Shown: piece by piece, positions 26,346-54,792 of the stretch | How the letters are laid out: every line of letters starts with the position of its first letter | How positions within the stretch are numbered: position 1 is the first letter of the stretch | Made by a program: the position numbers and the translations under genes | Assembly: GCA_043805415.1 (NCBI GenBank) | Contig: JAZDHZ010000009.1 | Location: forward strand, 13,973-77,972 | From: Candidatus Omnitrophota bacterium | GTDB taxonomy: Bacteria; Omnitrophota; Gorgyraeia; B26-G9 | Length of the DNA: 64,000 nt | Direction: 5' to 3' | The notes under the pieces: generated by a model | What the model saw: only the letters and a program-made list of their open reading frames with translations | Told to the model about the DNA's origin: nothing | Databases searched by the model: none

Positions 26346-28466
26346 ATGGAACTTAAAAAATGGGAGACTCCGGTTAAAGGTTCTCAAGAGGAAAAAGAAG
26401 TTATTGATTTACTTAAAGCATTTTCTTCAACCCTTAAAAAAATCCCGCTTTATCCGGCAACGCATCCAATGGTAAAAGACTCGATTTTACAGCTATACTT
26501 GAGCTTGGATGGGTTCTCAAAGAGATTCGGTGATTTTGTTTTAGATATTACTGACAAGAGCATCATGATCTGTGAGCAGCCATTTGAAGCCGCTGGGACG
26601 GGAAAAGATTTAACCGCGGAGTTTAAGAAAATATCAATAGAAGGAATGACTTTTAAGCAGGGAGTTCCTGATTATGAGCTGGAATCTTTTTTAAAGCTGT
26701 TTTTACTAAAGCCGGATATGATCAAAGAAAAAGGCGGAATTAAGGAGATAATGGCGCAGCAGGGAATAACTAAAATTGTGCTTAATGAAGTGCACTATGC
26801 CCGGATTAAGACTGAAGAAGAAATTAGAAAAAAGACAGACGAAGAAGCTGGATCAGGTGAAGGATCAGGCGAAGGTGCTGATGCTGGTGAAGGTGCTGAT
26901 GCTGGTGAAGGTGCTGATGCTGGTGAAGGTGAAGGTTCTGGTGCTGGCGTACATTCTAAACAAGAAGATAAAGATATTGTGGGAATGGTTAGTGATTTCT
27001 TTAGTGGAAAATCCGATGTGGTGCCGGATAAAGAAGTTATTTCCTATGAATTTAAAAAGAATGCCCGCAGAGTGGTCAAACAGTTGCTTGAACTTGTCGG
27101 ACCGGAAAAAGCAGTAGATGAGGTGCTGGCAATAATTGAAGATCGTTTTGATAAAGCTGGATTTACAACAGAAGAAAAAGATGTTTATGTTGAAAAAGTT
27201 AAAACCCAGATTATTAAATTAAAAACTCCTAAAATTTCAAAAAAAGATATGGAGAAACAATTAAAAGCTTTAAAATTAGAAAATAAAAAACTTCACGCTT
27301 TAGCGCAGGAAAATGAAAAACTGAAAAAAATGCTGAAAAACGCGGATCAAAGTATTGATCAGGCTGTTTTGAATGCTACCGCGGCGCTGGCAGATGAAAA
27401 CAAACAAATAAAGAGAGAAAAACATCGAATTAATTCTGTGCTTAAACACGTTGCTGAAGGTTTGATAATTATTGATAATGAGGGCAAGGTGCTTGTGCTT
27501 AATCCCGCTGCTGAGCAGCTTTTGGGGGCAAGTAAGGAAAGTAAAGTTGGACAGCATATTTTAGAAGACTTAAAAGAAGAGCAAATGGTTAGTTTGGCAA
27601 AAGATGGACAAAGAGAAATAGAAATAGAATTAGCCGGGCCTAGTGATGGAACAAAGAAAACTCTTCGCGCTAGTTCCGCGGTAATTGAAAATGAAGAAGG
27701 CCAGACCGTGGGAATGGTTTCTGTGTTGAGCGATATTACCCGGCAAAAGGAACTTGAGAAGATGAAGGATACTTTTGTTTCTAATGTAACTCATGATTTG
27801 AGAGCCCCGTTGATTTCGATTCAAAAAAGTTTATCTTTAGTCCTCGATATTGCTAAAGATACTATGCCGCAGGAACAGAAGCAATTTCTGGAAATAGCGA
27901 GTAATAATGCTTCGCGCTTAACTAGTTTGGTTAATGATCTTCTTGATGTGGCAAAACTTGAATCCGGGCGAGCTCGTTTGGAATATAGTAAAACGAGTAT
28001 GGAGGAAGTGGTAAATACAGTTTTTGACATGTTGGGAGCTTGGGCTAATAGCCGGGGAGTAAAACTGGAAAAAGAAGGAATCGCGGATATTGTTTTTGAC
28101 TCAGACGCAAAACTGCTGGGACAGTTGTTTACAAACCTTGTGGGCAACGCGATAAAATTTACTCCTTATGGCGGCAGTATTAAAATTACCGCGGAGAGAA
28201 TTGATAAAGATATTAAGATTGCGGTTATTGATACTGGCTGTGGTATTCCAGCTGATAGCCTGGAGAAAATTTTCGGTAAATTTGAGCAGGCGAAAACCAT
28301 ACCAACCAGCGGTTCGCCCAAAGGCACGGGTCTGGGACTGACAATTGTAAAAGAAATTGTTTTGCTCCATGGCGGCAAGATTTGGGTTGAAAGTGAAATT
28401 GGCAAAGGCAGTAAATTTATTTTTGTACTCCCGGCTGAGAAAGAGGTTTTGGATATTCGTGATTAA
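26346..28466 (+). CDS. cytoplasmic sensor histidine kinase (N-terminal domain of unknown type, Gly/acidic repeat, coiled coil, PAS, HisKA, HATPase)
   Basis: No TM helix; PAS (VLVLNPAAEQLLG); H-box THDLRAPL; N, G1, G2 ATP-lid motifs; internal GEGADA repeat. Confidence 0.85.
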   Translation: MELKKWETPVKGSQEEKEVIDLLKAFSSTLKKIPLYPATHPMVKDSILQLYLSLDGFSKRFGDFVLDITDKSIMICEQPFEAAGTGKDLTAEFKKISIEGMTFKQGVPDYELESFLKLFLLKPDMIKEKGGIKEIMAQQGITKIVLNEVHYARIKTEEEIRKKTDEEAGSGEGSGEGADAGEGADAGEGADAGEGEGSGAGVHSKQEDKDIVGMVSDFFSGKSDVVPDKEVISYEFKKNARRVVKQLLELVGPEKAVDEVLAIIEDRFDKAGFTTEEKDVYVEKVKTQIIKLKTPKISKKDMEKQLKALKLENKKLHALAQENEKLKKMLKNADQSIDQAVLNATAALADENKQIKREKHRINSVLKHVAEGLIIIDNEGKVLVLNPAAEQLLGASKESKVGQHILEDLKEEQMVSLAKDGQREIEIELAGPSDGTKKTLRASSAVIENEEGQTVGMVSVLSDITRQKELEKMKDTFVSNVTHDLRAPLISIQKSLSLVLDIAKDTMPQEQKQFLEIASNNASRLTSLVNDLLDVAKLESGRARLEYSKTSMEEVVNTVFDMLGAWANSRGVKLEKEGIADIVFDSDAKLLGQLFTNLVGNAIKFTPYGGSIKITAERIDKDIKIAVIDTGCGIPADSLEKIFGKFEQAKTIPTSGSPKGTGLGLTIVKEIVLLHGGKIWVESEIGKGSKFIFVLPAEKEVLDIRD
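26847..26948 (+). repeat. In-frame tandem repeat, 18-bp unit GAAGGTGCTGATGCTGGT x3 plus degenerate flanking copies (encodes SGEGSGEGADAGEGADAGEGADAGEGEGSGAG)
   Basis: Direct inspection of sequence 26847-26948. Confidence 0.9.
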
Positions 28467-30258
28467 TCGAAGCGTTGGACAAACCCCGGTAAATCTAGAA
28501 CAGTTCTTGCTTGAAGTCAGAAAGCCGGCGCGGTATATCGGCAATGAGTATAATAGTATTGAAAAAGAACAAACTCAAGATATGATCAACTTTGCTCTCT
28601 GCTTTGCTGATGCCTATGAACTGGGCATGAGTCACCTGGGAGTTAAAATTCTTTATTCGATTTTAAATCAATTGGATGATGTTTATTGTGAACGCTGTTT
28701 TTCTCCTTGGCTAGATATGGAGAAAAAAATGCGCGAGCATAAGATCCCGCTTTTTGCCATTGAAACAGCCCGTCCGATTACTAATTATGACATTATCGGT
28801 TTTTCTTTGCAGTATGAACTGGGATATACTAATCTGCTGAATATGCTGGATCTCAGCAATATCCCTTTATACAGCAAGGATAGAGATATGAGCCATCCGC
28901 TGATAATTGCCGGAGGTCCCTGCAGTACCAATCCCGAGCCCATGGCTGATTTTATTGATGTTTTTTTTGTCGGTGAAGCCGAAGAGCTGATAATTGAATT
29001 TATTAAAGTTTTTCGCGAGTTTAAAAATAAGCAGTGTCTGGGAATGGAGCTTAATGATAAAAAAGAGCTTAAGAATAAAAGAGATGAGCTTTTAAAGAAA
29101 CTGGCGCAAATTCCCGGGCTGTATATTCCTAAGTTTTATGCTTATGATCAAAATAATGTTCTTAGACCAGAAAATAAGGATATTGCCGAAACCATAACCA
29201 GGAGATTTGTGGCGGATTTAGATGCAACGCCTTATTTTACTAAGCCGCCAGTGTCTTATATTGAGATAGTGCATGACAGGATAAGCATCGAGATTATGCG
29301 GGGTTGTCCAAATAAATGTTTTTTTTGCCAAGCGGGTTTTACGATAAATCCTGTTCGAATTCGAAAAATAGATACGATTTTGGCTTTAGCTAAAGAAACA
29401 TATGCTAATACTGGATATGATAATATATCTTTTTGTGCTTTATCTAGCGCGAATTATCCATATCTTATTGAGCTAATTAAAGTAATGCATTCTTTTTGCC
29501 ATCCCCGAGGCATGGGGATTTCTTTGCCTTCCTTAAGGGTGGATACCCAGTTTTTGGGCCTTATTTCCATGCTTGAGGGCCTTAAAAAAAGCGGACTTAC
29601 TTTTGCTCCGGAAGCAGGAAGCAGCAGATTGAGAAAGATTATAAACAAAGACATTGATATTGAAGCTTTAAAACTTGCCGTGCTGGAAGCTTATCGCAAA
29701 GGCTGGAAAAGACTTAAACTTTATTTTATGATTGGTTTGCCGACTGAAACGGAAGAAGATTTAGTGGCAATCGTAAAAATGATCGAAGATTTTTCTGCTT
29801 TGCGCAAATCAATTGATGGGAGATGGGGGCAAGTTAGCGTCGGGATATCTAATTTTATCCCTAAATGCCATACTCCTTTTCAGTGGCTGGGAATGGAGTC
29901 AATCGAAGCTTTGCGGCAAAAGCAGGACTTTTTACGCCAAAGGCTAAACCGGAAAAGTTTTGAAGTGGATTTTCATGATCCGGCAATGAGCTTTGTTGAA
30001 GCCTGCATGTCGCGGGCAGATAGAAGGCTAGGGACTGTGATTAAACAGGCCTTTGACAATGGGGCAAGGTTTGATGCCTGGACTGGTGTTTTTAATTTTG
30101 AACTTTGGGAAAAAGCTTTTGAAGTTACCGGGGTTGATCCAAAGGACTATGTATATAAGGGAAAAAACTTTGATGCCCCATTACCCTGGGATCATATAGA
30201 CTGTGGTTTTGCCAAAGATGGATTAATCAAAAATGCTAAAATAGCGGCTAATGCATAA
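28457..30258 (+). CDS. B12-binding-domain radical SAM protein (uncharacterised TIGR03960-like family)
   Basis: N-terminal cobalamin-binding-like domain; CxxxCxxC (CPNKCFFCQAG) radical SAM core. Proposed GTG start overlapping the HK stop with GAGG RBS; start uncertain. Confidence 0.65.
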
Positions 30259-30527
30259 GCACTGATTTAAAATTAAAAATTAACTGATTCCGGGCATTTC
30301 TATGTGATTTAACTAATTGACATTATATCGCTTGTATGCTATAGTCGATTTTAAATCAGGGTAGTGTGATTGGGGGATTAAAATACTTAGATATGATCAA
30401 AAATAGGGGGTAATTTTTAGATCTTTATCAACCCGCCTATTTATAATCGCAAATCAAAAAAAATTTGTGCTAATATCTGAATTGAGGATATATTAAATTG
30501 TAAAGGTTAAAAAAGCTTGAGGATATT

Positions 30528-30938
30528 ATGGAAGAAAAAATAAAAGTATTGCTTGTCGATGATGAAGTTGACTTTATTAATATGATGCAGTATTGGCTTA
30601 AAAGCAAAAATTTTGACGCGGATGTTCTTTACAGCGGTGAAAATGTTGTGGAGCAGGTTAAAGCTAAAAATTATGATTTAATGTTTCTTGACCTTAGATT
30701 GCCAGGTATTGATGGTTTGGATATTTTACGGCAAGTAAGACAATATTCCAAGAAACTCCCAGTAATAATTTTTAGTGCCTTTGGTACAGCTGAAAGTTTG
30801 AAAGAAGCAACCAAGCTGGGGATCTCTGGTTTTTTCGCAAAAGAAAAAGGGTTTGAAGAAGCCGCGCGTTTGATTTATACAGCATTGCGGATACACAAAG
30901 GTTTAGCGCATTCTGATGCTGAGGAAGGAGAAAAGTAA
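30528..30938 (+). CDS. single-domain response regulator (CheY-like receiver)
   Basis: DDE acidic pocket, phospho-acceptor Asp (FLDLRLPGIDG), conserved Ser (FSA) and Lys (AK) receiver residues; 136 aa, no output domain. Confidence 0.85.
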   Translation: MEEKIKVLLVDDEVDFINMMQYWLKSKNFDADVLYSGENVVEQVKAKNYDLMFLDLRLPGIDGLDILRQVRQYSKKLPVIIFSAFGTAESLKEATKLGISGFFAKEKGFEEAARLIYTALRIHKGLAHSDAEEGEK

Positions 30939-30939
30939 T

Positions 30940-32004
30940 ATGGCAGTTGAAATGGGAAAATTACTCCGAATCCTTATTGAACGCAATGGGTCTGATTTGC
31001 ACTTAGGAGCAAATACTCCACCGCATATCAGGGTGGATGAAAAGATGTTGAATATTAGTGATGATATATTAACTCCGATTGATTGCCAGGAGCTTATATA
31101 TAGTATACTTAGTCCTGAAGAAGTGGAAAAATTTGAAAGAGAAAAAGAACTGGATCGCTCTTTTGAAATTGAAGGGATGAGTCGTTTTCGAATGAATGTT
31201 TTCTTTCAAAGAGGTCAGGTTGGCTGCGCGATTAGAGTTATTCCTTTTGATATTCTTTCATTTAGTCAATGCGGTTTACCAATAAAAATTGTTACAAGCT
31301 TAGCCAGAAAACCCAAGGGTTTGGTTTTAGTAACCGGCGCTACCGGATCGGGAAAATCAACAACCTTGGCATCAATTATCAATTTAATTAACGAGGAAAG
31401 ATCCTGCCATATTATTACGGTAGAAGATCCGATTGAATTTGTACACAAAAACAAAATGGCAGTTATTGATCAGCGAGAAGTGGGACAGGATACAAAATCT
31501 TTCGCGAAAGCATTAAAGCATGTTTTGCGCCAAGATCCGGATGTTATTCTTGTTGGTGAAATGCGGGATCTGGAAACAATTGAAGCGGCTTTAACTATTG
31601 CTGAAACCGGGCATCTTGTTTTTGCCACTTTGCATACTTCAGACGCTGTGCAAACTGTAAACCGGATTATTGACGTATTCCCTTCGCATCAACAGCAACA
31701 GGTACGCACCCAATTATCATTTGTTTTGGTAGGAATAGTTTCCCAACAATTGATTCCGAAAGTCGGCGGTACTGGCAGAGTTTTAGCTGCTGAGGTGATG
31801 CTGGCAACTGCGGCTGTAAAAAGCATGATCAGAGAACAAAAAGTGCATCAAATCTACTCAATTGTCCAAACCGGACAAAAAGATGGGATGAAGACAATGA
31901 ATCAGTCTTTGTACGAACTTTATACTGAGAAACATATTACTTACGAAGACGCGGTATCGCGTTCAACCGATCCCGACGATTTAATCCGACTATTTAAGAG
32001 ATAA
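30940..32004 (+). CDS. pilT: type IV pilus retraction ATPase PilT
   Basis: Walker A GATGSGKST, Asp box, His box, PilT-type AIRNLIRE-like motif (AVKSMIREQK); GGAGGAG RBS before ATG 30940. Confidence 0.9.
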   Translation: MAVEMGKLLRILIERNGSDLHLGANTPPHIRVDEKMLNISDDILTPIDCQELIYSILSPEEVEKFEREKELDRSFEIEGMSRFRMNVFFQRGQVGCAIRVIPFDILSFSQCGLPIKIVTSLARKPKGLVLVTGATGSGKSTTLASIINLINEERSCHIITVEDPIEFVHKNKMAVIDQREVGQDTKSFAKALKHVLRQDPDVILVGEMRDLETIEAALTIAETGHLVFATLHTSDAVQTVNRIIDVFPSHQQQQVRTQLSFVLVGIVSQQLIPKVGGTGRVLAAEVMLATAAVKSMIREQKVHQIYSIVQTGQKDGMKTMNQSLYELYTEKHITYEDAVSRSTDPDDLIRLFKR

Positions 32005-32006
32005 AC

Positions 32007-32621
32007 ATGGCTATTAAAAAATCAAAAACAAAACAGCTTGGGCAGTTATTGATGGAAAAAGAGATCATCACTCATGGCCAGCTGGATCAGGCGCTTGAAA
32101 TTCAGCTCAAAGATGGCGGTTTGCTGGGGCAGATACTTATTAAACTGGGATTTGTTACCGAACAGCAGATTGAAGACAGTGTTTTTGAGCAAACAACTAA
32201 TTCCCAAAAGCTTGAAAATGTGCTTATGGAAATGGGGATAATCACTCAAGAGCAGATAAATCTAGCTAATGATTTGGAGAAAAAAGAGGGTAGTTTTTTC
32301 GCGCAAAACATTATTAAGCTGGGGTTTCTTGGAGCCGAAGATTTAGTAAGCATTATGGTGACTCAATTCGGATTTCCTTATTTACAGCTAGAAAATTACG
32401 AAATAGATCCTGAAATAGTAAAGCTTGTTCCCCAAAATATTGCCCAGAAATTCAGTTTAATCGCTATTGATAAAATAGGAAATATTTTAACAATAGCCAT
32501 GGCTGACCCTCTAAACGCGAAAGCCCAAGATGAAATAAGAAAAGCTACAGGCTTAAACGTGGAAACTTTTATTTCTACTTATTCTGAAATAGAAGCTGCC
32601 TTGACAAAGAATTACAAATAA
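32007..32621 (+). CDS. stand-alone MshEN-like (putative c-di-GMP-binding) repeats plus T2SSE_N domain, no ATPase domain
   Basis: Two pairs of MshEN-type ~24-aa motifs (LGQLLMEKEIITHGQLDQALEIQ / LLGQILIKLGFVTEQQIEDS; VLMEMGIITQEQINLA / FAQNIIKLGFLGAEDLVSIM), then GspE_N fold (…IAIDKIGNILTIAMADPLN…). Confidence 0.7.
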   Translation: MAIKKSKTKQLGQLLMEKEIITHGQLDQALEIQLKDGGLLGQILIKLGFVTEQQIEDSVFEQTTNSQKLENVLMEMGIITQEQINLANDLEKKEGSFFAQNIIKLGFLGAEDLVSIMVTQFGFPYLQLENYEIDPEIVKLVPQNIAQKFSLIAIDKIGNILTIAMADPLNAKAQDEIRKATGLNVETFISTYSEIEAALTKNYK

Positions 32622-32649: not shown

Positions 32650-34362
32650 ATGACTCAGAGTTTAAAAGAAAAAATGATGGATGTTTTGACCCGGTCTAAT
32701 TTCTTAACGAAAGAACAATTAGACGAAGCGATAGAGGCTCAGAAGAAAACTGGCCGGCGTTTAAGTGATGTTTTGACAATGATGGGGTATATAACCCAAA
32801 AAGATTTAGTTATTGTCTTAAGTCAAAGCTTAAATATTCCTCCGATAAACCTGGCGAAAGTTAAGATCAATCCGGAAATAGTAAAAATCATTCCTCGAGA
32901 ATCTGCTGAAAAGTACCAAGCGCTGGTAGTTTCCAAAATTGGTAAAGTTCTTACGGTTGCGATGGTAGACCCGCTTAATGTTTTGGCAATTGATGAACTA
33001 AAAGTATTGACCAACTATGAATTAAAAATTGTTGTTGCCGAGGAAAAAGAACTTAAAGTCGCGATTAATACTTATTATAGTGACTCGACTAATGAGCAAA
33101 TTAGAAATATTATTGATGACGCCAAGGACATGAATCTGGAAATTATTGAGGATGCTGACAGTCAGGAAAAAATATTTAATACTGCTCAGATGCTTAAGGA
33201 TGTTGAAGGCGCGCCGATTGTTAAAATCACCAACATGCTTTTAGCCCAGGGAATAAAAAATCAAGCCAGTGATATTCTGATCGAACCACAGGAAAAAGTT
33301 TTACGTATCCGCTACCGTTTAGATGGGATTTTAAAAGAATTTCCCGCGCCGCCAAAACATATGGAAGAAGCAATTGTTTCACGGATAAAAGTTTTGTCAG
33401 TTCTCAATATCGCTGAACATCGATTGCCTCAGGACGGCCGGTTTAAAATTAAAGTGGCGGATCGGGAAGTGGATTTCCGTGTTTCGATTATGCCGACAAG
33501 TCATGGGGAAAAAGTCGCTTTGCGTGTTTTGGATAAAACCGCGGTGGTTTTGGATCTGGATAAGATGGGCTTTGAACCGGATGGGCTTAAAATTATAAAA
33601 GAACTGGCCATGGAGCCGCATGGGATGATGCTTATATGCGGACCAACCGGAAGCGGTAAATCAACAACGCTTTATTCAATTCTGAAGTATGTTGATGATC
33701 CGGAAAAAAATATTTGCAGCGCGGAAGATCCGGTTGAATACCAGCTTGAAGGAATAAATCAGGTAAATGTTAATCCTGAAGTTGGATTGACCTTCTGCGG
33801 CGCGCTGCGTTCTTTTTTACGTCAAGATCCTGATGTTATCATGGTTGGGGAAATCCGCGATACCGAAACTCTGGATATTTCGATTAAAGCCGCGCTTACC
33901 GGACATCTTGTTTTAAGCACTTTGCACACCACTGAGGCGGCTGGAGCAGTAACCAGAATGGTTAATATGGGGATTGAACCTTTTTTAATTACTTCTTCCT
34001 GTATTATGGTCTGCGCTCAAAGATTAATCCGCAAAATTTGTCCTGATTGCAAAGAAGGCTATCCGATACCTGCTGAAATAAGAAAAAAATTTAAGATCGG
34101 GGAGCAATATAAAACATTATTCAAAGGCAAGGGGTGCAAAACCTGTCAAGGCACTGGATACAAGGGAAGAATCGGTATGTGCGAAGTTCTGGCCTTAACC
34201 CCTGAAATACGTGATTTAATTATGGTTAGAGCGCAGGAAAATTTAATTAAGGCTAAAGCCCGCGAACAGGGAATGGTTACTTTAAGAGAGCATGGAGTAA
34301 TTAAATGTTTAAAAGGGATTACGACATTGGAAGAAGTTACAAGGCTAACTGCTGACGATTAA
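32650..34362 (+). CDS. pilB: type IV pilus assembly (extension) ATPase PilB/GspE family, paralog 1
   Basis: N-terminal MshEN-like motif, T2SSE_N, Walker A GPTGSGKST, tetracysteine CPDC…CKTCQGTG. Confidence 0.9.
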   Translation: MTQSLKEKMMDVLTRSNFLTKEQLDEAIEAQKKTGRRLSDVLTMMGYITQKDLVIVLSQSLNIPPINLAKVKINPEIVKIIPRESAEKYQALVVSKIGKVLTVAMVDPLNVLAIDELKVLTNYELKIVVAEEKELKVAINTYYSDSTNEQIRNIIDDAKDMNLEIIEDADSQEKIFNTAQMLKDVEGAPIVKITNMLLAQGIKNQASDILIEPQEKVLRIRYRLDGILKEFPAPPKHMEEAIVSRIKVLSVLNIAEHRLPQDGRFKIKVADREVDFRVSIMPTSHGEKVALRVLDKTAVVLDLDKMGFEPDGLKIIKELAMEPHGMMLICGPTGSGKSTTLYSILKYVDDPEKNICSAEDPVEYQLEGINQVNVNPEVGLTFCGALRSFLRQDPDVIMVGEIRDTETLDISIKAALTGHLVLSTLHTTEAAGAVTRMVNMGIEPFLITSSCIMVCAQRLIRKICPDCKEGYPIPAEIRKKFKIGEQYKTLFKGKGCKTCQGTGYKGRIGMCEVLALTPEIRDLIMVRAQENLIKAKAREQGMVTLREHGVIKCLKGITTLEEVTRLTADD

Positions 34363-34383: not shown

Positions 34384-36102
34384 ATGCGTAGGACAAAAAA
34401 ACGTCTTAATGAGCTTTTGCTGGATTACAATTTAATAAGCGAAAAAGATGTTATTAGCGCTTTAGAAATTCAGCGCAAAAGAGGCGGACAATTAGCGACA
34501 ATATTAATCGAGGAAAATTTTGTTAAAGAAGAAGATATTGTAACTTGTTTTTGCCGTTATTTAAATGTTCCTCCGATAAACCTTTCCAAATTCCATGGCG
34601 ATGAAAAAAAGATAAAACTTATTCCCGAACACGTTGCAAGACATTATCGTTTGATCTGCATATCGCAAGTTGGTAATATGCTGACAGTAGCGATGTGCGA
34701 TCCTTTGAACGTGCTGGCGATTGATGATATTAAGGCTTTAACGGGTTATGATATTATTCCAGTGGTATCAGCATTGAGCGGGATTACATTAGCGGTTGAT
34801 CGTTTCTATCATCATAAAGAAGAGGTTAAGACTGAAGAAAGTTTTGATGATTTAGTCAAAGAAATCAATGAGGATGATATTCAGCTGGTTAAAGAAATTG
34901 AACAGATTGATATCGGGGATGTTATCAGATCAAGCAGCGAAGCGCCGATAGTCAAGATGCTTGATGCTTTAATCGCTGAAGCATTGATGAAAAGGGCTTC
35001 GGATATTCATATCGAACCATATGAGACAAAAATAAGAGTACGCTATCGAGTTGACGGAGCATTGCAGGAAGCAGCGATTTTACCGAAAAAGATTCAAAAC
35101 GCGATAGCCGCGAGAATAAAGATTATGTCTAACCTGGATATTACGCAAAGGCTTGTTCCTCAGGATGGAAGATTTAAAGTAAGGCTTGGCGATAAAGAAG
35201 TTGATTTTCGTGTTTCTATTTTACCAATCAGTTTTGGGGAAAAAGTGGTAATGCGTGCTTTGGATAAAGCTAATCTTAGTATCGGTCTTGAGGCTTTAGG
35301 TTTTTTGCCGCAAGCAATGGATGCTTTTGCCTACGCGGTTGCTCAGCCTTATGGAATGATTCTGGTAACTGGTCCGACTGGAAGCGGTAAATCAACCACG
35401 CTGTATTCGGTTTTAAATAAACTTAATGTTCCGGAGCGCAATTTGATTACAATCGAAGATCCGGTTGAATATCAGGTAGATGGAATAACCCAGGTCCAAG
35501 TAAAAGCTGATGTCGGGCTTACTTTCGGTCAGGGACTGCGGGCAATTTTACGGCAAAATCCCGATATTCTTATGGTTGGAGAAATTCGTGATTTTGAAAC
35601 CGGAGATATCGCGGTAAAAGCAGCTTTGACTGGAGCCTTGCTGTTAAGCACATTGCATACTAATGATGCTCCGGGAGCGGTAACCCGGCTTATTGATATG
35701 GGCATAGAGCCGTTTCTTATTGCCAGCAGTGTTATTGCTGTCGCGGCGCAGCGGTTAGCACGTTCAATTTGTCCTAATTGCAAGGAGGCTTATAAAATTC
35801 CCCAATCAGTTTTAGATAGAATGGACCTTGTCCTTGACGCGGAAAAAATTACTGTATACAGAGGTAAGGGTTGTGATAAATGCGGAGGAACCGGGTATAA
35901 AGGACGTTTTGCGATTCTCGAAGTAATGGTGGTAAATGATGCAATCAGAGAAATGATAATGAATCGCAATTCCAGTGATGAAATAAAGCGTTATGCCAGG
36001 AAAAAAAACGGGATGTTGACTTTACGCGATTCCGGCATTCAGAATTTTCTTAAAGGTCAGACAACTCTTGAGGAGGTATTAAGAGTAACCTCCAAAGAAT
36101 AA
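34384..36102 (+). CDS. PilB/GspE-family ATPase, paralog 2
   Basis: Same architecture (MshEN-like N-terminus, GPTGSGKST, CPNC…CDKCGGTG); ~40-45% identical to paralog 1. Confidence 0.9.
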   Translation: MRRTKKRLNELLLDYNLISEKDVISALEIQRKRGGQLATILIEENFVKEEDIVTCFCRYLNVPPINLSKFHGDEKKIKLIPEHVARHYRLICISQVGNMLTVAMCDPLNVLAIDDIKALTGYDIIPVVSALSGITLAVDRFYHHKEEVKTEESFDDLVKEINEDDIQLVKEIEQIDIGDVIRSSSEAPIVKMLDALIAEALMKRASDIHIEPYETKIRVRYRVDGALQEAAILPKKIQNAIAARIKIMSNLDITQRLVPQDGRFKVRLGDKEVDFRVSILPISFGEKVVMRALDKANLSIGLEALGFLPQAMDAFAYAVAQPYGMILVTGPTGSGKSTTLYSVLNKLNVPERNLITIEDPVEYQVDGITQVQVKADVGLTFGQGLRAILRQNPDILMVGEIRDFETGDIAVKAALTGALLLSTLHTNDAPGAVTRLIDMGIEPFLIASSVIAVAAQRLARSICPNCKEAYKIPQSVLDRMDLVLDAEKITVYRGKGCDKCGGTGYKGRFAILEVMVVNDAIREMIMNRNSSDEIKRYARKKNGMLTLRDSGIQNFLKGQTTLEEVLRVTSKE

Positions 36103-36216: not shown

Positions 36217-37422
36217 ATGCCTTTATTTAAATACGTTGCAAAAGATGAAGACGGCAATGCTGTTGATGATCTGATCGAAGCAAAAGATGAAATGGTTGCT
36301 CTTGATATGCTCAGAGTTAAAAATCTGATTATTATCTCAATTACTGAGCAAAAGCAAGCGAAAGCCAAGGCCAAAACTGGGGGTAAGAAAATAAAAGCGG
36401 AAGAGCTGGTAATTTTTTCCCGACAGCTGGCAACAATGGTTAATGCTGGAATCCCGCTTGTGCAAAGTCTTGATATCTTAAGTGAGCAAATGGAGAGCAT
36501 AACATTCAGGCATGTAGTAACAACGATCAGGAGTGATGTAGAATCCGGATCTAGTTTGTCAGCTGCTTTGGAAAAACATCCAAAAGTTTTTACCATGCTG
36601 TATACAAATATGGTGCGAGCCGGAGAAACCAGCGGTATGCTGGATGAAATTCTTGAGAGACTTGCTGGTTATTTAGAAAAGAGCGGTTCATTGGCGCGTA
36701 AAGTAAAATCTGCCATGGTTTATCCGGCAGTTGTTTCGATGATGGCTATTGGAATAACCTTAGTTCTATTATTGAAAGTTATTCCGACTTTTAAGGAGAT
36801 ATTTGCTTCTTTGGGCGGCACGCTTCCTTTGCCTACTCAAATATTGATTAATATTTCAGACACTTTACAGGTATATTTTATCTATGTAGTTGCTGCTTTA
36901 GTGGCAATTGGGTTTGCCGTTGCTAAAGTTATACAAACTCCGCAGGGTAAACTGCGTTTTGATCAGCTAAAGCTTGGTTTGCCGGTATTTGGTCCTTTAC
37001 TTAGAAAAGTTGCTGTTGCTCGATTTTCCCGAACACTTTCAACCTTGATCAGAAGCGGCGTGCCGATTTTAGGCGCCTTAGAAATTGTGGGAAAAACATC
37101 AGGCAATGTTGTGATTGAAGCAGCAGTAGAAAGTTCGCGGGTAGGAATTCGCGAAGGAGAAAGTATTGCCTCTCCACTTGCCAAAAGTAAAGCTTTTCCT
37201 CCAATGGTAACCAGAATGATATCAGTTGGCGAGGAATCTGGAGAGCTTGAAAAAATGCTTACAAAAATTGCTGATTTTTATGAGGATCAGGTAGATGCGG
37301 CAGTAAGCGGCTTAACCAGTTTAATTGAGCCATTGATTATTGCTTTTTTAGGTCTTGTTGTTGGATCTATAGTAATTGCCATGTTTTTGCCGATATTCAA
37401 GATCAGTGAACTTATTGGTTAG
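36217..37422 (+). CDS. pilC: type IV pilus inner-membrane platform protein PilC (GspF family)
   Basis: Two T2SSF repeats, 3 TM helices, 401 aa. Confidence 0.9.
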   Translation: MPLFKYVAKDEDGNAVDDLIEAKDEMVALDMLRVKNLIIISITEQKQAKAKAKTGGKKIKAEELVIFSRQLATMVNAGIPLVQSLDILSEQMESITFRHVVTTIRSDVESGSSLSAALEKHPKVFTMLYTNMVRAGETSGMLDEILERLAGYLEKSGSLARKVKSAMVYPAVVSMMAIGITLVLLLKVIPTFKEIFASLGGTLPLPTQILINISDTLQVYFIYVVAALVAIGFAVAKVIQTPQGKLRFDQLKLGLPVFGPLLRKVAVARFSRTLSTLIRSGVPILGALEIVGKTSGNVVIEAAVESSRVGIREGESIASPLAKSKAFPPMVTRMISVGEESGELEKMLTKIADFYEDQVDAAVSGLTSLIEPLIIAFLGLVVGSIVIAMFLPIFKISELIG

Positions 37423-38878: not shown

Positions 38879-40582
38879 ATGAAAAAAAAGGATATTTTTG
38901 CGAAAGAGAAAAAAATGGTCTACAGTAATAAGGGAGTGGCTTTAATTGCCGCGTATTTTACTCTCTTAGTTCTGACGATACTTTTTGTTTCTTTTATGGG
39001 CCGAATTTTTACTGAAAGCCGAGCTGCGGGAAGAAATAAGGAGGTCGTAGAAACATCCTATTTAGCTGAAGCAGGAATTGATCAGGTAACAGTTGATTTG
39101 CATAAATTATTCAAAGCTTATTTTATTGCCCAAGGACGCAGAGAAAGCGCTTTTGTCTGGTTTGACGATTTGCCTAATTCGGCTAAATATGTTTTGCCGG
39201 TTAATGCGGCTTTAGGTCCTGGTACGTATACGGTTCAGATAACTGATGTTAATTCTTCTATCTCTTCTCAGCGGGAGATTACATTTGTTTCCACAGCTCA
39301 AATAGATAATATAATAAAGAAAGTGACAGCAGTGATTCGTTATGAATTAGTTTCTTCAGAAGTATTTAAAAATAGCTACTTTGTTAATAATTTTGGCTGG
39401 TTGTGGGGGAATACCATAACCAGTCAAGGCGATATTCGGGCGAACGGCAATTTTAGCTTTGGGACCTATACTCCAACAATTAACGGAGACATTTATGCCG
39501 CGGTAAATCCTGATATCGGTGCGACCGGGGCAATTATTGGTAATAATGATTATGATAATATTACTGATTACCGCGATGATTCCTCAACCGCGGCGCGGCC
39601 AAGTAATCCAAGTGCTGATCCTCAGGATATTAATTTAGACGGAATTATTGAGCAATTTGCTTACGCGGATGGTTATGATGGTGCTAGTGATAAGATATCT
39701 AACCTTGAAGGCGTGGAAATGCCTTATCTCGGAGATCTGCAGGAATATAAAGATATAGCAATCGCGCAAAATGGAACAATATCACAAGGCGGGGCTGTGA
39801 TTGTGACTAATGTGCTGGATACTACAGGAGCCGACACCATTGTATTAATCGGAACAGCGGCAAATCCAATTCAGCTTAACGGTCCGGTAGTAATTGCCGG
39901 TGATGTTCTGATAAAAGGGGTCGTTACCGGACAAGGTACTATTTATTCCGGAAGAAATATTCATATCGGGGGTAATGTAACTTATAAGAATGCGCCTTCT
40001 TGGGTGAAACCTGATACTGACTCCGCGACAACTGATACCCAGGCTGATGCCTGCGATTTTTTAGGCTTGGCGGCAAAGGGAAATATTGTTGTCGGTGATT
40101 ATACCAGCGGTACTTTTAACCTGATAGAAAATTACTTAAAACCGCCTTTTACTCAGCCCTATAAGGTTGACCCCACAGATGCGGGCATTGGCTATGTTTC
40201 CTATACATCAGGGGGGGACTCTTATTTTAATGGTGACTATACCGCTAATGACGGAGGCAGGAAATTTGATTCAGCGGGTAATGACGCGGGGGCACGGAAA
40301 TTTTATGAATCTTCATTAAAAGACAATGAGTTTCGGTCATTTTGTGATAGCGGATTGTTTACGAGAATTGACGCGATATGCTATACAAACCATGCTTTAA
40401 CCGGAAGAATAGGGCAAATGGTTATAAATGGAATAATTGTTTCTCGCGATGAGGCAACTTCGTATTCTGGACATCTGACTTTGAATTATGATATTCGGGC
40501 AAAATCAGACAGATTGGGGAAAAAGATGTATTTGCCGAGAAGTTTGGCTTTGCCGCATACGGTGTATCTGAAAAGAGATTGA
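38879..40582 (+). CDS. large PilX_N-domain minor pilin / putative tip-associated protein (module A, gene 3)
   Basis: N-terminal GVALIAAYFTLLVLTILFVSFMG resembles the PilX N-terminal domain; 567 aa Gly/Asp/Thr-rich; alternative start ATG 38915. Confidence 0.65.
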   Translation: MKKKDIFAKEKKMVYSNKGVALIAAYFTLLVLTILFVSFMGRIFTESRAAGRNKEVVETSYLAEAGIDQVTVDLHKLFKAYFIAQGRRESAFVWFDDLPNSAKYVLPVNAALGPGTYTVQITDVNSSISSQREITFVSTAQIDNIIKKVTAVIRYELVSSEVFKNSYFVNNFGWLWGNTITSQGDIRANGNFSFGTYTPTINGDIYAAVNPDIGATGAIIGNNDYDNITDYRDDSSTAARPSNPSADPQDINLDGIIEQFAYADGYDGASDKISNLEGVEMPYLGDLQEYKDIAIAQNGTISQGGAVIVTNVLDTTGADTIVLIGTAANPIQLNGPVVIAGDVLIKGVVTGQGTIYSGRNIHIGGNVTYKNAPSWVKPDTDSATTDTQADACDFLGLAAKGNIVVGDYTSGTFNLIENYLKPPFTQPYKVDPTDAGIGYVSYTSGGDSYFNGDYTANDGGRKFDSAGNDAGARKFYESSLKDNEFRSFCDSGLFTRIDAICYTNHALTGRIGQMVINGIIVSRDEATSYSGHLTLNYDIRAKSDRLGKKMYLPRSLALPHTVYLKRD

Positions 40583-41168: not shown

Positions 41169-41472
41169 GTTTGCAAAAGTATTGACAAGGTTTGGTAGCT
41201 AATGTATACTTATATTATAGGTAAAAGTTTTATTTATTTTACCCTTTTATCGATAATGGCAAACCCACTGAAAAGTGGGGGCGTTTCTCTGAGATTACTT
41301 ACTGGTAAACACAGCAATGAAACACCGAATGATTTTACTTCCTTGAATCGCATCAATCGGGGCAAAGCCACGGGTCTAATGGTGTTCCTTAATAGACGGC
41401 CGGGTTACCGAAATAAAAAGGAAAAGCCAATGATAGCCGAGCTACCGAAATAAAAGGTAGGTCGGTTTTTTG
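41169..41472 (+). promoter_or_regulatory. Conserved ~300-nt leader, copy B (promoter TTGACA-17-TATACT, GEMM-like blocks, terminator)
   Basis: Near-identical to copy A; substitutions cluster in a few short stretches; the 83-aa ORF called across it is probably spurious. Confidence 0.5.
41437..41471 (+). terminator. intrinsic terminator (expression platform of leader B)
   Basis: Same stem-loop plus T6 as copy A. Confidence 0.5.
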
Positions 41473-41499
41473 TCTAAAAAGGGGGAATGGGGAAAGCTT

Positions 41500-41955
41500 A
41501 TGCAAAGAAGAAAAGGTTTTACTCTGGTTGAAATACTGGTTTCAACTGCTATTATGGCGATTGCAATTACATCTACTTTGCAGATTTTAATGTATCTGTT
41601 ACAGATGAATGAAGCAAATCAGGTATCAGTTGCTTGCATGAATAGAGCTCAGGGGATCATGGATGAGATTAAAAGAGTTAATTATGATGATGTGATTACG
41701 CTTTATAATGGAAATCAATTTACTGTTGCTGAGCTGACAAGCAGGAATGTCCGCCATAGCGGAGTAATTTACGCGAATGAAATAGAAGCGGACTTTCTTA
41801 TAGATATAAAAGTAGTTATCAGCTGGGGAAATAGAAATAGAATAATCGGTGAGGATACTAATTTAAATGGGGTTTTAGACATTGGGGAAGATTTAAATGG
41901 AAATGGGCAGATTGATTCACCGGTTATGATTGAGGGCACAATCTTAAATCGGTAG
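41500..41955 (+). CDS. type IV minor pilin-like protein (module B, gene 1)
   Basis: MQRRKG|FTLVEIL prepilin motif. Homologous to 37829 (shared V.V..W.R..RI C-terminal pattern). Start moved to ATG 41500 because 41470 lies inside the terminator T-tract; GGGGGAATGGGGAAAG RBS. Confidence 0.75.
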   Translation: MQRRKGFTLVEILVSTAIMAIAITSTLQILMYLLQMNEANQVSVACMNRAQGIMDEIKRVNYDDVITLYNGNQFTVAELTSRNVRHSGVIYANEIEADFLIDIKVVISWGNRNRIIGEDTNLNGVLDIGEDLNGNGQIDSPVMIEGTILNR

Positions 41956-47234: not shown

Positions 47235-47235
47235 T

Positions 47236-51203: not shown

Positions 51204-52475
51204 ATGGATAGATTGATAACCTTATTACCCTTTATCAGTGTTTTATTCTTAGTTGTTTTTTGGATTTTTAGTCCGAATATGGGCTCGGCGCTATTAACGA
51301 TTACGATTCCTTTTGTAATTTTTGCTTTTTACACTAATCTTAAGCGAAAACAGTTAATGCTGGAGCTGAAGGAAACAGTTAGATCCTTTCAAGCCGAAAA
51401 AGAAGAAATTATAAAAGAAATTCAAAAAAAAGAAAAAAAACAAAGAGAGCAATCAGAAGAATTAAGAGAATTTGGTAAAAGCCTTTCTACGGCAATTAAT
51501 AAAGACCAGCTTTTACGGTTGATTGTAAAAAATTTCAGCAAAGTAACTGAAACTGTTGAAGGGGAAAGTCAGTGTTTTCTTTTAACCCGGCAACAAGGCA
51601 CAGAAGAGTTTATTTACGAAGCCGGGCATAATTTTGACAGTAATACCTTGAAATCAACCCGGTTTAGTGAAAATGATGAAATTATTCAGTCAGTGGTAAA
51701 AACTAAAAAAATTCACACTTTTATTAGTGATATTTTTGGGGGCGATTCAAATATAAGGTACTTTCTTAAGGAAGAGAGAACTACTTATCTTTCTCAATTG
51801 GGGTCTTTAGCGCTTATCCCGCTTATAATGGAAGAGGAAGTTTGGGGAATTATAGTAGTTTTTTGTCGAGAAGGTTCTGCTGCGCATATAAAAAATGATG
51901 AGTCGTTTTTTAGGCTTTTAGTCACACAAGCTTCTATTGCTTTAGGCAGTGCTATTCATCGTGATCTGGCTTCGGTAGATAAATTAACTCAATTATATAA
52001 TCGGACTTTTTTGCAAAAACGGATGAAAGAGGAAATTGAGTTTTGCAATCGACAACTTCTGCCTTTGAGTCTTATGATGCTTGATATTGACCATTTTAAA
52101 GTGATTAATGATACCTATGGCCATCAAGAAGGCGATATGGTTTTGAAAAAAATAGCGCAAATTATCAGTAAAAGTGTTAGATTAACTGATATCTGCGCGC
52201 GTTATGGCGGTGAAGAGTTTGTTATTGTCTTGCCTGGAATTGAAGAAATCGCGAATGATAAGTTTTCCATTGCCGAAAAATTACGTCAAGGGGTGGAAAA
52301 TTCTGATTTTGTTGTTCTCGGGGATAAACATATAAAAGTTACGATTAGTGTGGGAGTTACAGTTCGCAGATATCCTAGTGATAAAGATTTAGGAATGAAT
52401 GAACTTATCCAAAGAGCTGATCAACTGCTTTATAAAGCGAAAAAAGAAGGCAGAAATAGAGTTTGTTATGCTTAG
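51204..52475 (+). CDS. membrane-anchored GAF-GGDEF diguanylate cyclase with intact I-site
   Basis: Two N-terminal TM helices, coiled coil, GAF-like domain, GGDEF domain with active RYGGEEF and RxxD (RLTD) five residues upstream. Confidence 0.85.
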   Translation: MDRLITLLPFISVLFLVVFWIFSPNMGSALLTITIPFVIFAFYTNLKRKQLMLELKETVRSFQAEKEEIIKEIQKKEKKQREQSEELREFGKSLSTAINKDQLLRLIVKNFSKVTETVEGESQCFLLTRQQGTEEFIYEAGHNFDSNTLKSTRFSENDEIIQSVVKTKKIHTFISDIFGGDSNIRYFLKEERTTYLSQLGSLALIPLIMEEEVWGIIVVFCREGSAAHIKNDESFFRLLVTQASIALGSAIHRDLASVDKLTQLYNRTFLQKRMKEEIEFCNRQLLPLSLMMLDIDHFKVINDTYGHQEGDMVLKKIAQIISKSVRLTDICARYGGEEFVIVLPGIEEIANDKFSIAEKLRQGVENSDFVVLGDKHIKVTISVGVTVRRYPSDKDLGMNELIQRADQLLYKAKKEGRNRVCYA

Positions 52476-52512: not shown

Positions 52513-54189
52513 ATGTTTCAAAAAAGTATTGATTCAATAGGACTGGAAATTGGCGATGGTTTAGTTAAGGCAATGCATATGCGTTCCTCGGCTAAAGAAA
52601 ACAAACTTCTGGGATATGAAGTTGTTGCCGTGAATTTTAGAGAAGGCCGCCAAGGTATTGTAAACGCGATGAATGATGTCTTGAGCCGTCTTTCGCTGAA
52701 CAAGAAAAAACATAAAGTTAATATCTCGGTTTCTGGTGAATCAGTCATGGTCAGGGATATTCATTGGCCGCAAATGGCTGATGAAGAGATCCGTAAAGCT
52801 TTAAAGTTTGAAGTAGAAAGACAGGTACATTATAAAACAGATGAAATTGTATTTGATTATTATTCTGTTTTAGACAAAACTATCGCGGAGACAAAAACAA
52901 GAGTAATTCTTGTCGCGGCTAAAAAAGATCTTATTGAAAACTATGTTAGTCTTATTGATTCAACTGGGTATCAATGCGGGTTTATCGAAGTAGATACATT
53001 TAGCTTGCTAAATTGTTTTTACGTGAATGGGCCTAAAGTTCCCGCGGAAAAAACAATAGCAATAATTAATATCGGAATGGAAGTTACGAATATTGATATA
53101 ATCCGCGGTAAGATTGTGGGCTTAACAAAAGATGCTTTTGTTGCTTGGAGTAATCTTATTGACGCGTTGCCCGCGGAGGTTGAGTTAGATTTTTCCGATG
53201 TAACTTCGCTTAAAGGTGTGATGGGCACAGATGATGTTTATGAGTTAAGCCTGTTTATTATGAATGCTCTTTCAAATCAGATAAGGCGGACGATTGAGTT
53301 CTATGAAAGCCAAGGCCGTGATACTGTTGAAGAAATCTACTTAAGCGGAAAAGTATCGATGTATAAGAATTTAGATAAATATTTAAAAAACATTTTGGGA
53401 TTACAGGTTAGTATCTGGGATCCGCTGGCTAATGTCCAATATGATCCCAAACAGTTCGCGGATAAGAAACTTAAAGACCAGGGTTTAATGCTTGCCGTTT
53501 GTACTGGGCTTGCCTGTCATCGATCGTTTAATATTAATCTGGCGTCTAGTAAAAAAGAAATTAAAAAGAACAAGGTGATGAAATTTGTTAACCAAAATAA
53601 AATCTTGTTTTATATCGCGGCAATTGTTATTTTAACCTTGATAGGAGTTTGGGTTATTTTAGTCAGTCAAGTAAAAATGAAAGAAGCAAATAAGCATAGG
53701 CTGATTGAACAGAACCAAAAGCTGGAAGGGATTTTGCGGGACATTGATTATTTGAAGCAAGGCAGAGTCACTTTGCAACAGCATATGTTGATCGCCAAGA
53801 CTTTGCTTTCCCGGAGAATTATCTGGGGTAAGAAGTTTTATCAAATAAGTGAAAATTTGCCGGAAGAAATGTGGCTGACAGAATTATATATAAAGGAAGA
53901 ATTAGCGACTAAGATAAAATCCCAGTTTGATTCAATAACTGATATTGGAAGTTTTAATGCCATGGGTAGTCAGGAAAAAGAGAATATCCAGATATTGATT
54001 ATAAAAGGAACCGCGTTTTCCAAAGCAAATGATAAAATGCTTAAAATGATAAATGATTTTATTAATGCCCTGAAGTATAATCAGGATTTCGCGAAGGACT
54101 TTTTATCCATAGAATTAAAACGCTCACAACGTGTTGATATCGGTGATCGAGCGATTATGAAATTTAGCATGGAATGTGTTTTAAAATAA
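52513..54189 (+). CDS. pilM: PilM-PilN fusion protein (actin-like PilM + TM helix + PilN periplasmic domain)
   Basis: N-terminal ~350 aa PilM actin/FtsA-like fold, internal TM helix (ILFYIAAIVILTLIGVWVILV), coiled coil and PilN-like C-terminal ~200 aa. Confidence 0.75.
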   Translation: MFQKSIDSIGLEIGDGLVKAMHMRSSAKENKLLGYEVVAVNFREGRQGIVNAMNDVLSRLSLNKKKHKVNISVSGESVMVRDIHWPQMADEEIRKALKFEVERQVHYKTDEIVFDYYSVLDKTIAETKTRVILVAAKKDLIENYVSLIDSTGYQCGFIEVDTFSLLNCFYVNGPKVPAEKTIAIINIGMEVTNIDIIRGKIVGLTKDAFVAWSNLIDALPAEVELDFSDVTSLKGVMGTDDVYELSLFIMNALSNQIRRTIEFYESQGRDTVEEIYLSGKVSMYKNLDKYLKNILGLQVSIWDPLANVQYDPKQFADKKLKDQGLMLAVCTGLACHRSFNINLASSKKEIKKNKVMKFVNQNKILFYIAAIVILTLIGVWVILVSQVKMKEANKHRLIEQNQKLEGILRDIDYLKQGRVTLQQHMLIAKTLLSRRIIWGKKFYQISENLPEEMWLTELYIKEELATKIKSQFDSITDIGSFNAMGSQEKENIQILIIKGTAFSKANDKMLKMINDFINALKYNQDFAKDFLSIELKRSQRVDIGDRAIMKFSMECVLK

Positions 54190-54198
54190 GGGAAAATA

Positions 54199-54792
54199 AT
54201 GAAAAAACAACTCGCTAAAAAAGATCAAATACTAATATCTGGAATTATTGGAATTTTCATAGTGGTTGTTCTGGTATTTGTCACAGTATTTCAGCCTTTA
54301 ATCGCGAAGATATTAGATTATAATAAGCAGGAAAAGCTGATTAATGAACAGCTTGCAAAAGTTGAAAGTATGTCTGCGGATAAAGAAAAACTATCGGTCG
54401 AGATAGAAAATATCGGCAAAAAAATTGAATATTTTGAAAAAAAATTGCCGCAACAGACCGATATTCCGGAAATACTTGAGGAGTTGATTAAAATCGGCGA
54501 AAAAAGCAATGTTACCTTTGTAATGATTGAGCCCCAGAATACCAAGCAAATAGCCGTGGGCGATTCTCAAGATAAAACTTATCTGGAAATTCCAATTGAA
54601 GTTAAGCTAAAAGCAGGGTTTCATCAGTTCGCGGAATTTGTTAATGGAGTAGAAAATTTTCAAAGATTCATGAAAGTAGATAATATAAAAATTACTTCAA
54701 AAGATGACAGTTCTGAGAAATTGCATGAGGCAAGTTTAACGGTCAGTGCTTTTGCGATAGAAAGAAATAAGGCTGATGAAAAAACTAATTAG
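54199..54792 (+). CDS. pilO: type IV pilus assembly protein PilO
   Basis: N-terminal TM helix, coiled coil, ferredoxin-like periplasmic domain; position after pilMN. Confidence 0.7.
   Translation: MKKQLAKKDQILISGIIGIFIVVVLVFVTVFQPLIAKILDYNKQEKLINEQLAKVESMSADKEKLSVEIENIGKKIEYFEKKLPQQTDIPEILEELIKIGEKSNVTFVMIEPQNTKQIAVGDSQDKTYLEIPIEVKLKAGFHQFAEFVNGVENFQRFMKVDNIKITSKDDSSEKLHEASLTVSAFAIERNKADEKTN

Follow-up and report, generated by a model that had tools for sequence, protein, structure and literature searches.

A stand-alone MshEN protein that is encoded among the pilus motor genes of an Omnitrophota bacterium is probably a free-standing receptor or adaptor for c-di-GMP (cyclic dimeric GMP), which serves the type IV pilus motor module of Omnitrophota in trans. 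The gene lies at positions 32007..32621 on the + strand of the window, a stretch of 64,000 nucleotides (nt) from a Candidatus Omnitrophota bacterium (assembly GCA_043805415.1, contig JAZDHZ010000009.1, positions 13,973 to 77,972 of the forward strand). It starts with ATG and encodes 204 amino acids (aa) that are arranged as (MshEN_N)×2 + MshEN_C. Second-messenger control in trans is proposed because both PilB paralogs encoded behind this gene lack a binding motif of their own. To our knowledge, just two receptor domains for c-di-GMP are broadly distributed, and MshEN is one of them.

The domain composition of the protein is clear from profile searches, whose matches lie far above what chance would give. 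Pfam places PF05157 (MshEN, formerly T2SSE_N) at aa 121-203 (E 2e-19, 69.7 bits, cut-off 23.1), and the 53-residue NCBIfam model NF053729 ('c-di-GMP_motif, MshE-related') matches two stretches, the best of which is aa 10-62 (E 1e-21, 76.3 bits, cut-off 38). Together with the gene coordinates, these matches bear out the original prediction, which had been made from the sequence alone and described a 204-aa product with two MshEN units and a T2SSE_N domain, without an ATPase, between pilT and two pilB genes. Its wording 'MshEN x2' needs correction, however: the two N-terminal units are real, but they are 53-residue MshEN_N sub-domains and not complete MshEN domains. Pfam gives MshEN alone, with EAL, GGDEF, and PilZ domains absent from the protein; a weak FumaraseC_C match at aa 65-91 is below the cut-off and was dismissed as helical noise. 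No match to the T2SSE/ATPase domain (PF00437) is found by Pfam in the protein, which ends at aa 204. Because a T2SSE domain with Walker A/B motifs is missing, the protein is not a PilB, although it is labelled 'PilB' by some sources, a mis-annotation of stand-alone proteins that is flagged here.

Four segments can be distinguished along the chain. A basic N-terminal tail (MAIKKSKTK, 32007..32033, + strand), in which K4 is nearly invariant and K9 invariant in the ortholog alignment, is followed by MshEN_N repeat 1 (aa 10-62, 32034..32192, + strand), the predicted c-di-GMP site, with the sequence QLGQLLMEKEIITHGQLDQALEIQ / LKDGG / LLGQILIKLGFVTEQQIEDSVFEQ. Repeat 2 (aa 68-120, 32208..32366, + strand) has a degenerate motif and reads KLENVLMEMGIITQEQINLANDLE / KKEGS / FFAQNIIKLGFLGAEDLVSIMVTQ. 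The chain is completed by an MshEN_C or T2SSE_N1-type α/β sub-domain (aa 121-203, 32367..32615, + strand), which is covered by the PF05157 match and is likely a protein-docking module. MshEN_C has 36-38% identity to its counterparts in PilB1 and PilB2, and it shares with repeat 1 the place of most conserved segment of the protein (0.78 vs 0.77).

The predicted structure strongly resembles the N-terminal domains of MshE-type ATPases. An AlphaFold2 model built on 28 orthologs has a mean pLDDT (predicted local distance difference test) of 84.5, with values below 50 for aa 1-8, and takes on eight helices in two four-helix units (aa 11-65 and 69-121) that are followed by an α/β domain. The top Foldseek match in the PDB is 5HTL, the c-di-GMP-bound N-domain of V. 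cholerae MshE (E 2e-9, template modeling (TM) score on target 0.68). A match to 9G1W has a TM-score of 0.75, and T. thermophilus PilF GSPII-A and -B, the X. citri PilB N-domain, and XpsE-N are among the further best matches. In a sequence search of the PDB, PilF is the best match (E 5e-36). The MshEN fold, on which the original prediction had been set beforehand to stand or fall, is thus found by AlphaFold2 and Foldseek, and the claim that the regulatory N-terminus of an MshE/PilB-type ATPase is made here as its own polypeptide is supported, with 5HTL as the top match and a separate gene in 78/78 loci.

The binding mode of MshEN has been characterized in detail. Two half-motifs of 24 residues, RLGxxLVxxGILxxxxLxxxLxxQ, are joined by a 5-residue spacer (Wang et al. 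2016, PMC5013675). Polar contacts are provided by Gly backbone amides and Gln side chains, and Leu clusters hold the guanines (PMC5013675). The substitutions G11L/I and G40I abolish c-di-GMP binding (PMC5013675); changes of Arg9, Asp12, or Gln32 shift the affinity by at most ~5-fold (earlier work cited in PMC5013675), and the discussion of PMC5013675 nevertheless ranks Arg9 and Gln32 as important for binding. The isolated N-terminal part of the V. cholerae domain (VcMshEN_N, residues 1-62) still binds c-di-GMP with a dissociation constant of 0.35 μM, the positive patch of this domain is formed by K5/R7/K8/R9, and MshEN is also a weak binder of cyclic GMP-AMP (cGAMP) (PMC5013675). In PilF GSPII-B, Lys and Leu replace both Arg residues, and the domain binds at 6 nM (Neissner et al. 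2024, PMC11731258). Its K167L variant binds at 2 nM, Leu improves the affinity, and the consensus was widened to (R/K/L)LG… (PMC11731258). The extended motif applied in this work is (R/K/L)LGxx(LVI)(LVI)xxG(LVIF)(LVI)xxxxLxxxLxxQ, present twice with a 5-residue spacer and with Gly at position 3 of both halves.

Repeat 1 agrees with the key motif positions at 20/22 under the relaxed consensus and at 17/22 under the strict one. In both halves, positions 2-3 are LG and position 24 is Q, and the 5-residue spacer is present; half-motif I departs from the consensus with Q10 (position 1) and E19 (position 10). G12, G41, Q33, Q62, and L39 are invariant among the 28 orthologs. The repeat aligns with residues 164-212 of PilF GSPII-B, where L39 stands opposite L196, and its half-motif II opens with Leu like that of this 6 nM binder. 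The basic tail that precedes the motif, with its invariant K9, resembles the positive patch of MshEN. In repeat 2, the corresponding triplets are KLE and FFA, which amounts to Gly→Glu and Gly→Ala exchanges, and E70 is conserved in at least 90% of the orthologs. As far as the motif tells, repeat 1 carries the feature of the MshEN subtype that binds c-di-GMP and repeat 2 fails to do so (E70 and A99 at the Gly positions). Repeat 1 alone looks binding-competent, and repeat 2 is predicted to be inactive for c-di-GMP because both critical glycines are lost.

The protein belongs to a conserved family. An identical protein has been deposited from a Candidatus Omnitrophota metagenome-assembled genome (MAG), and orthologs of 202-206 aa, about 42 in number, reach down to 51% identity, with an ortholog of 203 aa at ~40%. 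The gene surroundings were compared across 82 loci, mostly from Omnitrophota. A scan of one genome per GTDB species gave 472 relatives, of which the best 80 loci are labelled almost all as Omnitrophota and otherwise as uncultured Planctomycetes-type or unclassified bacterium MAG. The open reading frames (ORFs) of the loci were annotated with the window proteins as references. The conserved cluster is [radical SAM]-[GGDEF-domain protein]-[PilT]-stand-alone MshEN-PilB1-PilB2-[second stand-alone MshEN]-PilC. In 78/78 judgeable loci, the stand-alone gene is followed by a PilB gene at a distance of at most 250 nt, commonly with overlaps of -1 and -4 nt, and two full PilBs are encoded in 64 loci. 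No fusion of the stand-alone gene into an MshEN-PilB protein occurs among the loci annotated.

As defined here, the Omnitrophota stand-alone MshEN family comprises proteins of 145-210 aa with no other domain that are encoded directly upstream of pilB1-pilB2-pilC, and the protein of the window fits this description. Most members have a single MshEN domain and 145-153 aa. The tandem form of 202-212 aa is found in the family only in the window's sub-clade (12/82 loci). Against the profile of the single-domain family, repeat 1 of the tandem members scores 57-77 bits and repeat 2 scores 27-52 bits, with the exception of the two most divergent tandem members (L002 and L013), in which both repeats are intact. 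The simplest history suggested by these sequences is a duplication of MshEN_N, after which the copy adjoining MshEN_C lost its ligand motif.

The most telling pattern emerges when the stand-alone proteins are compared with the ATPases of the same loci. The motif register was set by the hydrophobic, Gly-10, and Gln positions, with positions 1 and 3 excluded to avoid bias; a version with a fixed register gives the same picture of motif conservation. Both position-3 glycines are present in 66/68 single-domain stand-alone copies, in 12/12 second stand-alone copies, and, by inspection, in repeat 1 of 12/12 tandem members, as against 0/71 PilB1 and 0/65 PilB2 proteins. Gln-24 of half-motif II is likewise found in 68/68 stand-alone proteins vs 0/71 PilB1 and 3/65 PilB2, and Leu occupies position 1 of this half in 61/68 of them. 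In other metagenomic lineages (L083 and L086), the stand-alone protein and PilB are divided in the same way. To judge from these counts, selection within one genome maintains the ligand-contacting residues of the stand-alone protein but no longer those of the ATPases, and PilB1 and PilB2 are predicted to be unable to bind c-di-GMP.

From these observations, we infer that the protein binds c-di-GMP and passes the signal on to a partner in the pilus machine. The distal four-helix repeat (aa 10-62) would bind one molecule of c-di-GMP, which is contacted by the backbone amides that follow G12 and G41, by the Leu clusters, and by Q33/Q62. The invariant L39 would stack on a guanine, like L196 of T. 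thermophilus PilF GSPII-B. The decayed repeat 2 may be a spacer or a partner surface. The C-terminal N1-type α/β sub-domain would dock the protein on the pilus machine, where the N-domains of PilB1/PilB2, PilM, or PilC are the putative partners; N1 domains of EpsE/GspE are known to bind the PilM paralogs EpsL/GspL (PMC8389850, PMC11656802). In this way, the level of c-di-GMP would control pilus extension by one or both PilBs in trans.

Parts of a c-di-GMP signaling system are present in the cluster itself. A GAF-GGDEF protein, predicted to be an active diguanylate cyclase, is encoded at 51204..52475 (+ strand; Pfam GGDEF, E 6e-47) and has an intact GGEEF and an RxxD I-site in the motif RLTDICARYGGEEF. 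Its gene is located directly upstream of pilM (52513..54189, + strand, 558 aa; Pfam PilM_2, E 2e-32), which is followed by pilO (54199-54792) and a secretin gene (55216-56895). PilM is a candidate docking partner for N1-type domains, and by analogy with GspE-GspL structures (PMC11656802) it may contact the N1-type sub-domain of the stand-alone protein. A c-di-GMP-I (GEMM-I) riboswitch aptamer is matched at 41248..41412 on the + strand (Rfam RF01051; score of 38.8 bits, gathering score 35), 58 nt upstream of a pilin gene (41470-41955); one of its hairpin loops contains an 84-nt insertion. Because an intact GGEEF cyclase and a c-di-GMP-I riboswitch are found in the cluster, control of this pilus system by c-di-GMP is supported at the sequence level independently of the stand-alone protein.

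Across the loci, a gene with a GGDEF domain is found upstream of the stand-alone gene, no more than 1.4 kb away, in 42/68 judgeable cases, often overlapping or abutting it. The typical neighbor is a protein with two transmembrane segments (2TM) of the 2TM-HAMP-GAF-GGDEF type (loci L013-L082, e.g. L020:3445-4872 and L031:3417-4871), and HAMP-GAF-GGDEF, GGDEF-AAA_16, or PDZ-GGDEF proteins take the same position in other lineages. The suggestion that the protein is a c-di-GMP receptor or adaptor, already part of the original prediction, is strengthened by the differential motif conservation, the linkage to GGDEF genes, and the riboswitch in the cluster. A role as a decoy, which the original prediction had also raised, is conceivable as well.

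Some observations weigh against this function. Position 1 of half-motif I is Q, H, or P in most family members and falls outside the tested R/K/L set; an invariant Lys is located one residue before this position in the family members. The model of the protein has a predicted TM-score (pTM) of 0.63, so the inter-domain orientation is uncertain. Where a PilB half-motif has Ser or Ala at the Gly position, as some do, weak binding by the ATPase might still be possible. The active sites of the upstream GGDEF proteins are almost all degenerate (GDHEF, AEHEF, TSDKF, RDDKF, and others), with 1/50 canonical, and in the window's sub-clade the GGDEF gene is replaced by a PAS histidine kinase, a radical-SAM gene, and a receiver. 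Because of their degenerate active sites, the upstream proteins look like sensors or scaffolds, recalling FimX, and not like local cyclases. The idea of a local diguanylate cyclase that feeds the sensor is weakened, as nearly all upstream GGDEF domains are degenerate and the intact cyclase of the window is 19 kb off beside pilM.

Three other explanations have to be weighed against a c-di-GMP receptor of the PilB motor. It is conceivable, although unlikely, that the protein works without a ligand as an N1-domain competitor or assembly factor at the docking site on PilM/PilC (or PilB), with helical repeats that are structural only; it would thereby aid the exchange of the two PilBs and PilT on the platform or keep the machine off. 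The gene is indeed positioned between that of the retraction ATPase and those of the extension ATPases, homologous N1 domains bind GspL/EpsL, which are PilM paralogs (PMC8389850), and repeat 2 has been retained despite clear loss of its motif. MshEN_C, moreover, is among the two most conserved segments and retains its 36-38% identity to PilB1/PilB2. Structural conservation does not account, however, for the invariants of repeat 1 being exactly the ligand-contacting residues (both Gly, both Gln, and the Leu clusters), which have been kept phylum-wide while they decayed in the PilBs, and it leaves the recurrent adjacency of a GGDEF gene unexplained.

The intact motif could also serve a target outside the PilB motor, for example the degenerate GGDEF sensor, PilT, or a two-component system, or the protein could buffer the local c-di-GMP; the ligand may then be c-di-GMP or another cyclic dinucleotide, as MshEN weakly binds cGAMP too (PMC5013675). 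The upstream partners differ by clade (degenerate 2TM-HAMP-GAF-GGDEF, PilT, response regulator), and one tandem relative (249 aa) has no adjacent pilB. We consider such a target improbable: pilB is the sole invariant neighbor (78/78 loci), and the C-terminal sub-domain is of the type that PilB/GspE use for docking to the machine. Hardly credible is the third explanation, in which the ORF is an artefact, namely a pilB fragment that arose from a frameshift, an assembly error, or a decaying pseudogene. Homology to the PilB N-terminus and the place directly upstream of pilB would fit a fragment, and fusion to the downstream pilB had been named in the original prediction as a result that would count against it. 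The ORF terminates with the double stop TAA TAG, though, and PilB1 starts 28 nt 3′ of it in another reading frame, has a complete N-terminal domain, and is preceded by GAGG, a plausible Shine-Dalgarno-like sequence. The gene is separate in all 78/78 loci from independent assemblies, its length of 202-206 aa is kept down to 51% identity, and its conservation is strong and patterned, which refutes the artefact. A receptor or adaptor that acts on the PilB motor is therefore retained as the preferred explanation.

The motor genes are arranged on the same strand in the order response regulator, pilT, stand-alone MshEN gene, pilB1, pilB2, and pilC, followed by pilin genes. The single-domain CheY-like response regulator (30528..30938, + strand; Pfam Response_reg, E 3e-25) precedes the PilT-type retraction ATPase (30916..32004, + strand), which has a Pfam T2SSE match and whose stop codon is followed after 2 nt by the ATG of the stand-alone gene. 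PilB1 (32650..34362, + strand, 570 aa) and PilB2 (34384..36102, + strand, 572 aa) are extension ATPases that are 46% identical to each other; both are full length, and each has its own N-terminal MshEN region as well as Walker A, GEIRD, and tetra-Cys motifs. These three motifs are intact in PilB1, as are the catalytic motifs in PilB2, but the MshEN_N motifs are degenerate in both (KMM / RLS in PilB1, RLN / QLA in PilB2). The platform protein PilC is encoded at 36217..37422 (+ strand; Pfam T2SSF, two repeats, E 1e-64).

A strong promoter-like site 5′ of the response-regulator gene (TTGACA-17-TATAGT, 30317..30345, + strand), which is a consensus match only (11/12 matches, with a TG extension), is a candidate start of an RR-pilT-MshEN-pilB1-pilB2-pilC operon, where RR denotes the response regulator. 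Terminator-like sites are absent from the gaps between pilT and the stand-alone gene and between the latter and pilB1. On the + strand, three weak sites of this kind are found inside pilB1 (33463-33811) and one inside pilB2 (35671-35688); their frequency is close to chance, with 14 found vs 10.4 in shuffles.

Related proteins with other arrangements were encountered among the loci. In 12 loci, a second stand-alone MshEN protein of ~150 aa is encoded between pilB2 and pilC (e.g. L019:10028-10474, L028:10223-10681, and L082:10045-10500). The motif of these second copies is intact, with LLG… in half I and both glycines in 12/12. A 249-aa tandem protein of the composition (MshEN_N)2-MshEN_C, with both repeats intact (RLG/LMG and NLG/LVG), is encoded at L085:7001-7750 near pilMNO and a secretin gene and not adjacent to pilB, so the tandem architecture also occurs outside the window's sub-clade. 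Two loci without an adjacent pilB encode proteins of 287-290 aa (L049:6001-6864 and L081:5980-6852). The first is an MshEN domain fused to a PilZ domain according to Pfam, which places two c-di-GMP receptor domains in one protein; the second is assumed to be the same fusion from its size and its match to the query, as Pfam was run on L049 only. The MshEN-PilZ fusion recalls the PilB-N/PilZ complex of Xanthomonas.

Further features of the window concern the regulation and use of the pilus. At the head of the cluster, a PAS-HisKA-HATPase kinase (26346-28466, + strand) contains a low-complexity (GEGADA)n-like insert around aa 170-200. The radical-SAM ORF that comes next (28357-30258) has its first possible start, a TTG at 28357, about 110 nt inside the kinase gene, and because of this overlap the true start probably lies further downstream. 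A PilS-like histidine kinase (6TM_PilS) and a PilR-like sigma-54 activator are encoded at 45942-48588 (+ strand) between two groups of pilin genes; with this pair, the pilus cluster has at least three separate regulatory inputs, namely two two-component systems and c-di-GMP. Two + strand ORFs among the pilin genes, 38879-40582 (567 aa) and 42651-45425 (924 aa), have no Pfam match and may encode pilus-tip or adhesin components. As a ComEC-type competence channel (Competence + DUF4131, 8009-9517, + strand) shares the window with the pilus cluster, the pili may serve DNA uptake.

A stand-alone MshEN protein is not a new kind of protein, because the very large superfamily has 16,096 representatives (50% clustering, E ≤ 0.001), with many architectures and many short proteins, and (MshEN_N)2 tandems have already been noted. 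In the literature searched, the characterized MshEN examples all act in cis and are fused to an output. No MshEN protein kept as a dedicated, free-standing subunit of pilus motor operons, and none described as a stand-alone partner of PilB, was found there, which is not the same as absence from the literature. Neither a phylum-wide complementary motif loss from the cognate PilBs nor an association with a degenerate GGDEF sensor was met in the literature searched, which also held nothing on pilus regulation in Omnitrophota. More tentatively, and with chances that we judge to fall a little short of even, the pattern may extend to a general feature of the phylum. Throughout Omnitrophota, c-di-GMP sensing by the pilus motor would have been split from the ATPase into a dedicated MshEN subunit with a high-affinity-type (Leu-stacking) motif, which is common to two motif-less PilBs and often teamed with a membrane-bound degenerate GGDEF sensor. 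Such subunits would be trans-acting MshEN adaptors of a class not described before, the counterparts of single-domain PilZ proteins, and the tandem form of the window would be derived, its duplicated ligand site having decayed into a new interaction surface.

If this holds true, the conserved free MshEN and the motif-less PilBs would represent a natural 'split' experiment in which sensing could be separated from the motor biochemically. It would reveal how the N-domain communicates with the machine, a step that recent reviews call poorly understood, and it would provide a first handle on pilus regulation in an uncultured phylum.

Comparison with known systems places the protein closest in structure to the MshEN domains of V. 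cholerae MshE (5HTL) and PilF GSPII-B (8PDK). It shares with them a four-helix MshEN_N followed by an α/β MshEN_C and two 24-residue half-motifs with a 5-residue spacer, and, as in PilF GSPII-B (L196), half-motif II opens with Leu. Unlike MshE and PilF, it has no fused ATPase, contains an extra, decayed MshEN_N repeat, and opens half-motif I with Gln instead of Arg/Lys, and its binding of c-di-GMP is predicted only. E. coli NfrB, Bdellovibrio Bd2402, and the (MshEN_N)2 tandems (Wang et al. 2016) illustrate that MshEN_N is portable and that tandem arrangements exist; in contrast to the protein described here, the module is fused to an output domain in these cases, or the protein is uncharacterized. 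A dedicated subunit encoded beside motif-less PilBs is not reported for other MshEN architectures in the literature searched.

In its proposed function, the protein comes closest to the PilB-PilZ-FimX system of Xanthomonas and Pseudomonas, in which the PilB N-domain has no motif and separate docking proteins sense the ligand (PMC8389850, PMC11656802). A degenerate GGDEF protein is part of the module both there and in the Omnitrophota clusters, a resemblance that is functional only. Unlike FimX and PilZ, the putative Omnitrophota sensor is an MshEN protein and a paralog of the PilB N-domain, with no kinship to EAL or PilZ in sequence or fold, and two PilBs are present. Single-domain PilZ adaptors (PMC11250160) are small stand-alone c-di-GMP-binding modules that act in trans, as is proposed for the stand-alone MshEN protein, whose fold and binding mode are unrelated to theirs.

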